From an uncultured Gammaproteobacteria bacterium (lineage in GTDB: Bacteria; Patescibacteriota; Patescibacteriia; Magasanikbacterales; UBA922): a stretch of DNA of 64,000 bases. Location of the stretch: contig CAZQXB010000001.1 in NCBI GenBank assembly GCA_964597575.1, forward strand, positions 964 to 64,963, written 5' to 3'. This document shows positions 15,008 to 18,000 of the stretch, piece by piece. Every line of letters starts with the position of its first letter. Within the stretch, counting starts at the first letter, position 1. The translations under genes were made by a program, and so were the position numbers. A model generated the notes under the pieces. It worked only from the letters and a program-made list of their open reading frames with translations. It was not told the DNA's origin and ran no database searches.

Positions 15008-18000
15008 CGTTAAAGCACCGCTTTGTGTTTCCGTAGTACACTCGATCGATTAGTACGCCTCGGCTAAAGCCCTCACGGGCTGTATACCTAGCGCCTATCA
15101 ACGTCATAGTCTCTAACGGATCTCAAATGAATGTTAATCTTGAGAATAGCTTCGCGCTTAGATGCTTTCAGCGCTTATCTATGCCGAACTTAGCTACCCA
15201 GCTATGCCCTTGGCAGGACAACTGGTCGACCAGAGGTTCGTCCATCCCGGTCCTCTCGTACTAGGAATGGGTTCTCTCAACATTCTCCGCCCGCAGTAGA
15301 TAGGAGACCGAACTGTCTCACGACGTTCTGAACCCAGCTCGCGTACCGCTTTAATTGGCGAACAGCCAAACCCTTGGGACCTTCTCCAGCCCCAGGATGC
15401 GATGAGCCGACATCGTACTTTCTTCCACAATTTCGTGTGGCGCAGACTATATCTTCTTCTTGCCGAGGATGGTAGCAGAACCAGTTTGCACTGGCCGTGA
15501 CCTGCATGATCTCCCGTTTTTGTTGCAAGAGTCGGCGTCTTACCTGTGTCAAAACATGACAGCAAGTCTCCCCTTTCGGGTCAGTCGTTACGGGGTCAAT
15601 CTGTTTTCACAGACGACTTCCCACGGTATTGCCGGGTAACCACACATTTCATATGGTCCTGACGGGTCCACCGTTATAAGCCGATTGTCTCTTTTTTACC
15701 TATCTAACTCATTAAAGTTTTAACGAAAAGATTGAGGATAAACATCACTGTTTCATGCACCCCGATATGTTAAGGTGCCAAACCGCGCCGTCGCTATGGA
15801 CGCTTGGGCGCGATCAGCCTGTTATCCCCGGAGTAGCTTTTATCTGTTGATCTTCCACTCTCCTATATGAGGTGGTCGGTTCACTAACTTCCACTTTCGT
15901 GACTGCTCGAGTTATCGCTCTTGCAGTAAAGCCAGCTTTTGCGTTTGCACGTCCACCCCGGTTTCCATCCGGAGTAAGCTGACCTTTGTAAACGCCTCCG
16001 TTATGATTTGGGAGGCAACCGCCCCAGTTAAACTACCCATCAGACACTGTCTCTCTCGGCCGATTCAGGTCAAGAAATAAAGGGACGTCATTTGACAAGG
16101 GTGGTATCTCACTGGCGCCGAAGCTCCCACCTATGCTGAACATGTCAAATAACGTACCAATGTCAAACTGTAGTAAAGCTTCACGGGGTCTTTTCGTCTA
16201 ACTGCGGGTACGTCGCATCTTCACGACACTTGCATTTTCGCCGAGTACATAGCTAAGACAGTCTTCACACCATTATGCCATTCGTGCGGGTCGGAACTCA
16301 CCCGACAAGGAATTTCGCTACCTTAGGACGGTTATAGTTACCGCCGGCGTTCATCAGCGCTTCGGCTCAAGGCTTCGCCTTGCGGCTAACCTCTCCCCTT
16401 AACGTTCTGACACTGGCCAGGCATCGCCCCCTATACGTCAGCTTGCGCTTTTGCAGGGAGCTGTGTTTTTGGTAAACAGTTGCATGAAGTCTTTTACTGA
16501 GACCTCGCTTGCGCGAGGTAGGCCTTATCCCGAAGTTACGGCCGTTGTTTTGCCTAGTTCCTTAGCCATGTTTCTCTCGTGCGCCTTGGTCTACTCGACC
16601 TATCCACCTGAGTCGGTTTACGGTACGAATTAACTACGCTTAACGTTTTCATGCTTTTCTAGGCACCCCATTTGCATATCTTGCTCTTAGCCGAAGCTTC
16701 GAACTTGCCCTTGCGGGACGTGTAGCCATACAACGCATATACAGTTGAAAAGTGCGCACATGAAAACAAACGTAAATAAGTGCAGGAATATTAACCTGCT
16801 CTTCCATCGGTTACCCCGCCTTGCGACGGGCTGGCCTTAGGATCGACTAACCCAGGGACGATTCTCGTGGCCCTGGAAACCTTGGATTTTCGGCGTGGAG
16901 GACTCTCACCCCCATTCTTGCTACTTGTGCCTACATTCTCACTTCCCAACGCTCCACCGTGGCTCACGCCTTCGGCTTCACAGCAGTTAGGAACGCTCCG
17001 CTACCAAATAAAAATCTCGAAAGATTTTTAAGTTCGCACCTGCGGTGTATCACTTAGCCCCGGTACATTTTCGGCGCGAAGACTCTCGACCAGTGAGCTG
17101 TTACGCTATCTTTAAAGGATGGCTGCTTCTAAGCCAACCTCCTGGTTGTATAAGAGTCGACACTGCCTTTTACACTTAGTGATAACTTAGGGACCTTGGA
17201 TTGCGATCTGGGCTCTTCCCCTCTAGACCGATGAAGCTTAGCCCCCATGGTCTGACTGGTATGTTTTAACTTCTGGTATTCGGAGTTTGATTGAAATAGG
17301 TATCCCGAAGGACCCTAGTCTCATCCAGTGCTCTACCCCCAGAAGGAACACATACCGCTAGTCCAAAAACTATTTCGCGGAGAACCAGCTATTACCGAGT
17401 TCGATTAGAATTTCTCTCCTATCCACAACTCATCCCCTAGTGTTGCACAGCTAGTGGGTTCGGACCTCCTCTCGCATCTCTGCGAGACTCATCCTGGCCA
17501 TGGATTGCTCACCCGGTTTCGGGTCATGTTCGTGCCACTTGTCGCCCTGTTCAGACTTGGTTTCCCTATGCCTTCGGACCATAGGCCCTTAAGCTTGCGA
17601 CACGAATCATACTCGTAGGCTCATTCTTCAATAGGAACGCTGTCACCCACATCAGTAAACTGACGGGGCTCCAACTCATTGTAAGCGTATGGTTTCAGAA
17701 ACTATTTCATCGCCCTCTCCGGGCTGCTTTTCACCGTTCCCTCATGGTACTTGTTCACTATCGATCAGTATTCATATTTAGCCTTACGACATAGTCGTCG
17801 TTACTTCCGACAAGATTTCACGTGTCTCGCCGTACTCAGGTACAATACCATACTGCGTTATATACATTTCGTTTACCGGGCTATCACCGTCTTTGGCGCT
17901 CTGTTCCAAGAGTCTTCAACTATATATATCGCGCAATATCCGGCATCACAGGTAGCCGACGTATTGCCCTCTAACACCATTATTGCAACGGCCTGTCCTT

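Follow-up and report, generated by a model that had tools for sequence, protein, structure and literature searches.

Group I introns make up 45% of the insertions in the 23S rRNA genes of bacteria of the candidate phyla radiation (CPR), according to a survey of these genes (Tsurumaki et al. 2024, PMC11270868). By its account, the introns cluster around the peptidyl-transferase centre in domain V, ORF-less introns (without an open reading frame) share sites with LAGLIDADG-containing ones, and earlier work found CPR 23S inserts to be absent from transcripts. Intron detection in the survey used sub-threshold Rfam matches with E <= 1e-4. Neither E. coli coordinates of the sites nor a remark on the 3'-terminal nucleotide was found in the accessible text. 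Here we describe a 357-nt insertion in the 23S rRNA gene of a 64,000-nucleotide stretch of contig CAZQXB010000001.1 (hereafter the window), together with its relatives at the same site. The insertion belongs to this known kind, group I introns in CPR 23S rRNA genes, and resembles the surveyed introns in its CPR host, its site in the peptidyl-transferase centre and its sub-threshold Rfam match. It ends in A and lacks the near-universal 3'-terminal guanosine of group I introns.

That guanosine is near-universal rather than definitional, and the Coxiella burnetii intron Cbu.L1917 is accepted as group I without it. To our knowledge Cbu.L1917 is the sole natural group I intron known to lack the terminal G. 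It reportedly ends in A and self-splices both in vivo and in vitro. The absence of the terminal G from this 23S intron is stated in the title of the original report (Raghavan et al. 2007, J Bacteriol 189:6572), and another source assigns the intron to subgroup IB2 (PMC11019260). A 2025 intron database describes group I introns as ending 'most frequently' in G. The window intron is likewise a bacterial 23S group I intron without the canonical G. However, it lies at position 2500 instead of 1917 and has subgroup IA architecture, and whereas Cbu.L1917 is known from one organism, the terminal A described here occurs in a clade of at least 22 introns from at least two phyla. No literature on position-2500 introns or on the A-ending clade was found in a searchable literature that is incomplete, especially for the organelle papers of the 1990s.

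The insertion in the 23S rRNA gene and its group I fold

The window holds a complete bacterial large subunit (LSU) rRNA gene on the minus strand (18401..15029; Rfam RF02541, 2346 bits, model positions 1-2925), with a 5S rRNA downstream at 14955..14849 (Rfam). The 23S gene is 3373 nt long against the 2925 positions of the model. When it is aligned globally with E. coli rrl (MAFFT; locus L001, 279-3182, 2904 nt), a single 357-nt insertion appears directly 3' of E. coli position 2500.

15029..18401 (-): host gene, bacterial 23S rRNA (RF02541)
15416..15772 (-): group I intron, 357 nt, after 23S U2500, ORF-less (MAFFT, RF00028, covariation)

The insertion is preceded by ..TTTGGCACCT (also given as ..UUUGGCACCU) and followed by CGATGTCGGCTCATC.. 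(also given as CGAUGUCGGCUCAUC..). It opens with TAACAT and closes with GAAAGTA, and its border cannot be shifted in either direction without altering universally conserved exon sequence. A first-pass annotation, made from the letters of the window, had reported an ORF-less insertion of about 357 nt at 15416-15772, near E. coli ~2500, following a U and with exons collinear on both sides. The alignment returns the same coordinates and puts the insertion exactly after U2500. The absence of a homing-endonuclease ORF, also claimed there, holds. Only two ORFs, both on the minus strand, overlap the insertion (15194-15565 and 15277-15552). Both straddle the border of intron and exon, and Pfam gives nothing for the longer of the two; the 357-nt intron itself contains no credible ORF and gives no Pfam hit.

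That the insertion is an assembly artefact or a chimera is scarcely credible. rRNA regions are hard to assemble, and a second assembly of the same organism (L192:1-1787, Logan SRR13355622, with an identical aldolase) ends ~155 nt inside the 3' end of the 23S gene, so that its contig breaks before the intron and does not reach it. Nothing specific otherwise points to an artefact. The exons are collinear to the base on both sides, a guide within the insertion is complementary to both flanks, and dozens of independent assemblies have homologous introns at exactly this site.

At the Rfam gathering threshold no intron was reported in the window. A sensitive scan of window 15300-15900 detected the group I intron family RF00028 at 15732..15424 (27.7 bits, E 4.6e-5), in a match that is full-length (model positions 1-253) and includes the hallmark ..GACUGA.. 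and the J8/7-P7 element GAAGAUAUAGUC. Homologues were sought in 185,579 species-representative genomes with a 3'-junction pattern (ATAGTC, 15-45 nt, then the 3' exon). At least 120 loci match the pattern, and a position-2500 intron was delimited in 60 among the matches listed. The 22 of these that resemble the window intron form alignment A2. A group I structure was written by hand from the window sequence, and its pairs were then counted on the 22 homologues. The model has 63 pairs in 13 helices (P1, P10, P2, P3, P4, P5, P6, P7, P7.1, P7.2, P8, P9.0, P9).

15757..15778 (-): P1, exon GCACCU (15778-15773) with guide GGGUGC (15762-15757); 6/6 pairs in 22/22 homologues
15763..15768 (-): P10 intron strand AUAUCG, pairing with exon C2501-U2506 (15415-15410), contiguous with P1
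15410..15415 (-): P10 exon strand CGAUGU, E. coli 2501-2506
15738..15756 (-): P2 hairpin; 6/7 pairs compensatory
15680..15684 (-): P3 5' strand UCGGC, pairing with 15536-15532, in a pseudoknot with P7; 100% paired, 3/5 compensatory
15532..15536 (-): P3 3' strand GCCGA; from the covariation count
15623..15674 (-): P4 (15674-15671 / 15626-15623) around P5 and a variable P5 extension; 100% paired
15665-15663 / 15634-15632 (-): P5; 2 compensatory pairs, and the P5 extension covaries
15592..15622 (-): P6/P6a/P6b hairpin with GAAA loop; 100% paired, GUC/GAC changed to GUU/AAC in 5 sequences
15583..15588 (-): P7 5' strand A(C)GACU, the C bulged; 100% paired
15444..15448 (-): P7 3' strand AGUCU, preceded by the J8/7 sequence GAAGAUAU
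15571..15580 (-): P7.1 hairpin CCC GAAA GGG; 2/3 pairs change from C-G to U-A
15542..15567 (-): P7.2 hairpin; 3/4 basal pairs compensatory
15458..15530 (-): P8 (15530-15525 / 15463-15458), closing a branched extension; 4/6 pairs compensatory, present in the minimum free energy (MFE) fold
15425..15440 (-): P9 hairpin with GAAA-type loop; 5/6 pairs compensatory
15417..15418 (-): P9.0 3' strand GU, pairing with J7/9 at 15443-15442; from covariation
15416..15416 (-): terminal intron nucleotide (omega position), an A; canonical G absent

Standard pairs fill 98.3% of the 1383 cells of this model, a share that falls to 35-41% if the 3' partners are shifted by 1-3 columns. Changes on both sides of a pair occur in 28 of the 63 pairs and are distributed over P2, P3, P5, P6, P7, P7.1, P7.2, P8, P9.0 and P9, and none of 500 column shuffles attains the observed pairing or covariation score. 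The core helices (P3-P4-P5-P6 and P7-P3'-P8-P7') are 95-100% paired. The P1 pairs are invariant because the exon is fixed, and they include a U2500•G wobble at the 5' splice site in all 22 homologues. P10 (6 bp) pairs in 99.2% of cells, with one-sided C/U changes that keep the pairing. The P3/P7 pseudoknot has three compensatory P3 pairs, including a change from UCGGC/GCCGA to UCUGC/GCAGA in L025. An MFE fold computed from the window intron by itself contains P2, P3, P4-P6, P7.1, P7.2 and P8 (z = -3.1).

Other pairings were tried and rejected. RNAalifold on a 10-sequence alignment found the local hairpins; as it has no means of representing the pseudoknot, it wrongly joined the 5' strands of P3 and P7 to each other. 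CCCGAAAGGG was considered as the P3 3' strand; it covaries instead as the local hairpin P7.1, and the true partner GCCGA lies downstream of it, as the double change in L025 confirms. CUUGCUG/CGGCAAG was considered as P8 and was replaced by P7.2 plus a covarying P8, UCUUGC/GCAAGA. In the 5' part of the intron (positions 44-50; window 15723-15729, minus strand) the sequence UUUUCGU opens a second hairpin. It is invariant in the ten closest relatives though its hairpin varies, and it may be a tertiary contact.

The position of P7.1 and P7.2 between P7 and P3' marks subgroup IA architecture. This arrangement is the hallmark of subgroup IA in the Michel and Westhof 1990 classification and is found in the phage T4 td and Twort orf142-I2 introns, which belong to that subgroup. 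The window intron shares the P7.1/P7.2 insertion with them. In contrast, the two phage introns lie in protein-coding genes and end in G, and no phage record is detectably similar to the window intron: BLAST searches with it found nothing in phage and plasmid collections, and neither did a pattern scan of viral contigs.

Taken with its position, this fold makes it very probable that the insertion is an ORF-less group I intron of subgroup IA, placed after U2500 of a CPR 23S rRNA and removed by standard two-step splicing. The first-pass annotation had proposed a self-splicing group I intron, to be checked by an Rfam scan, and the class is borne out by the full-length though sub-threshold RF00028 match and by a group I fold that covaries in 22 homologues. 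It is extremely improbable that the insertion is instead an intervening sequence or expansion segment, either cut by RNase III without ligation to leave a fragmented 23S rRNA or simply retained. Such inserts do occur in bacterial 23S genes, including those of CPR bacteria, and this gene has two others near its 5' end. RNase III-processed intervening sequences are likewise extra 23S-gene sequence absent from the working ribosome. However, they are simple stems at helix tips whose removal is not followed by ligation, whereas the window intron has a complete group I architecture, with a ribozyme core and with guide sequences that pair with both exons. Its ends pair with the exons (P1, P10) and not with each other, no long stem joins the borders, and position 2500 is in the single-stranded ring of the catalytic centre rather than at the tip of a helix.

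The terminal A and the 3' splice site

Among the matches listed, 24 of the 60 position-2500 introns end in A and 36 in G. The last two bases, U-A, are invariant in all 22 aligned homologues, in which mean column identity is merely 44%. The P9.0 pairing forms in 23 of the 24 A-ending introns, against 3-4 of 60 when the register is slid, and its C-G pair is replaced by U-A in the three introns with the ending ..AUA. A sister clade ending in ..GUG (Actinomycetota, Chloroflexota and other metagenome-assembled genomes; L019, L045, L081) has introns at the same site, with the same core motifs and the same P9.0 register. These differ in being shorter (260-320 nt), in starting with CAAU.. and in having the canonical terminal G directly after the shared register; the A of the window intron therefore stands at the homologous position. 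The 3' splice site is at A|C2501, fixed by P1 (U2500•G), the contiguous 6-bp P10 and the covarying 2-bp P9.0. The first-pass annotation was right that the last base is A rather than G. The doubt that it attached to the boundaries and the intron class is removed, since the fold is group I and P1, P10 and P9.0 fix the junction.

The border could still have been mis-called, with the true end at the G two bases upstream (..AAAG|UA), a canonical intron, and a mature rRNA that keeps UA. The intron both begins and ends with UA, so excision in the shifted register would give a single defined product, and G is found at position -2 in 20 of the 24 A-ending introns listed. Four have A there: L052, L066 and L116 (AUA) and the doubtful L101 (ends AAA). 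In L052, L066 and L116 the base covaries with its J7/9 partner (C-G to U-A) and is therefore a paired base of P9.0, not the terminal nucleotide. P10 begins exactly at C2501, contiguous with P1. In intronless relatives that share the helix-89 sequence the junction is canonical and lacks UA, and two additional nucleotides in the peptidyl-transferase ring would be implausible. We regard the shifted border as very improbable and retain A|C2501. The exact intronless 43-nt junction, with the lineage's own helix-89 sequence, is present on 70 metagenome contigs, which confirms the form that a ligated product would be expected to take.

The guanosine-binding site is unchanged in the A-ending introns. 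All 60 position-2500 introns listed, whether they end in A or G, share the J6/7-P7 sequence CCCGUAACGACUGA and the J8/7-P7' sequence GAAGAUAUAGUCU, and the G-C pair beside the bulged C is present throughout. In the window intron this pair, G at 15586 with C at 15445, is invariant in 22/22 homologues and by analogy would be the guanosine-binding pair. An altered pair (A-U) was considered as an explanation of the terminal A and was found in none of the 60. A column-by-column contrast of the A-ending clade with the ..GUG clade gave no core column that tracks the terminal base. An A-ending clade with an unchanged G-binding site implies that the second step must tolerate A. This tolerance probably rests on P9.0 and P10, and a protein helper is possible.

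Since position 2500 sits in the catalytic centre, splicing is expected, and by analogy with other group I introns it would be started by guanosine and end in exon ligation. The precursor would fold into the P3-P9 core. The guide GGGUGC and the exon GCACCU would then form P1 and present the U2500•G wobble. The G-C pair of P7 would bind an exogenous guanosine, which would attack the 5' splice site, and the 6-bp P10 (AUAUCG with exon C2501-U2506) and 2-bp P9.0 would position the 3' splice site. The freed 3'-OH of U2500 would attack the A|C2501 bond and restore ..GGCACCU-CGAUGUCGG.. rRNA with a canonical peptidyl-transferase ring. Both the use of guanosine and the handling of the terminal A are predictions of this scheme.

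Several observations weigh against this account. The RF00028 score is well under the curated gathering threshold (27.7 vs 50 bits). In Tetrahymena model ribozymes exon ligation is severely impaired once the terminal G is replaced by A, and the binding pocket of the A-ending introns shows no compensating change. We infer the actual splicing of the window intron from sequence. The ligated-junction pattern returned from metagenomes neither a species-level intronless allele nor a spliced transcript of the lineage, the nearest of the 70 contigs matching at ~92% over 422 nt, and recent mobility in this lineage is therefore undocumented.

The missing terminal G, the lost endonuclease ORF and the low Rfam score would also suit a decaying, splicing-impaired remnant that is wholly dependent on host or protein factors or that marks a non-functional 23S copy. 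However, no core helix of the window sequence is disrupted, and the exon sequence at the peptidyl-transferase centre is conserved in full. The same fold and the terminal A are kept through compensatory changes in 22 divergent homologues from at least two phyla, which indicates purifying selection and not decay. Dependence on a protein cofactor would be compatible with a splicing intron. A remnant is thus unlikely, and purifying selection for the ribozyme fold across 22 divergent introns would be understandable only for an RNA that works.

Relatives at position 2500 and the meaning of the terminal A

The host is a Magasanikbacteria-like CPR bacterium, and the first-pass annotation had implied a CPR host: the best named relatives of the window RpoB are Candidatus Magasanikbacteria (78-82% identity). 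By record title the hosts of A-ending introns are many lineages of Patescibacteria (Magasanik-, Saccharibacteria, Paceibacter and Kerfeldbacteria groups) and Planctomycetota, and the planctomycete introns include two on long contigs (L036, 266 kb; L054, 3.19 Mb). A rough neighbour-joining tree, built on 218 of 222 well-aligned columns with the last four (the intron 3' end) left out and without bootstrap support, puts the A-ending introns in essentially one clade with G-ending clades as sisters. Three planctomycete G-ending introns (L067, L072, L088) are nested within the A-ending clade and do not have its P9.0 pairing. They could be reversions to G with a remodelled 3' end.

Some records have titles outside these groups: L023, L025, L047, L083, L118 and L112 are named as Gammaproteobacteria, Polynucleobacter or a Nitrososphaerota archaeon. 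Exon identity to the CPR 23S gene of the window is 80-83% for L023, L047 and L083, and L112 carries a bacterial LSU rRNA. L025 and L118 are grouped with the doubtful labels solely by introns closely related to that of the window. All six are likely mis-binned or mislabelled contigs of metagenome-assembled genomes.

One A-ending relative, L070, has an 815-nt position-2500 intron that encodes a 209-aa LAGLIDADG_2 protein (E 9e-43). The comparison with relatives lacking the insertion, also suggested in the first pass, turned up a related Magasanikbacteria 23S (L068) that aligns through position 2500 with no intron, besides the 70 intronless metagenome contigs. Because L070 retains the endonuclease gene and L068 is intronless, the window intron is best read, on sequence comparison, as an ORF-less derivative of a homing intron. 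A G-ending intron of 832 nt is present at position 2500 in a Coxiella endosymbiont of Ornithodoros (L035:6862-7693, plus strand), and the intron-rich habit of Coxiella 23S genes thus extends to this site.

The family is under-detected at the curated Rfam threshold. In the 23S gene of L070 (L070:1-4854) four group I introns score above the gathering threshold and the 815-nt position-2500 intron is missed; the position-2500 intron of L054 (L054:2634-5860) is likewise missed. All three members examined (window, L054, L070) score below the threshold. Pipelines that rely on it will mis-annotate 23S genes with position-2500 introns as oversized or broken.

That a CPR 23S gene should contain an ORF-less group I intron is expected biology; the conserved terminal A is the distinctive feature. 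Its clade-wide occurrence with an unchanged guanosine pocket contradicts the textbook rule of a terminal G and makes the clade a natural system for the study of 3' splice-site choice in the second step. We consider it an even proposition that a large, old and horizontally spread position-2500 clade, now in Patescibacteria and Planctomycetota, swapped the terminal G for A while keeping a canonical G pocket and a fold under selection. If so, and if the introns splice efficiently, the second step would be possible without canonical recognition of a terminal G. P9.0 and P10 could then suffice for it, or the A could make a non-canonical contact. The A might also be selected for suppressing G-dependent side reactions, such as 3'-site hydrolysis and circularisation, in organisms with a single rRNA operon. 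A single Coxiella curiosity would become a natural family suited to mechanistic study.

Other insertions and RNA genes of the window

Near its 5' end the same 23S gene has two further insertions relative to E. coli, probably expansion segments or intervening sequences of the RNase III type.

18105-18171 (-): 67-nt insert after E. coli 226, one long hairpin (-33 kcal/mol, z -5.1)
17929-18045 (-): 117-nt insert after E. coli 285 (z -1.8)

The rRNA genes of this genome appear to be unlinked, as Rfam finds 23S and 5S and no 16S rRNA gene within the 64-kb window. In most bacteria AUA codons are read by a CAU/lysidine tRNA instead of a tRNA-Ile with anticodon UAU; a tRNA-Ile (UAU) is present at window 3640-3713 (-).

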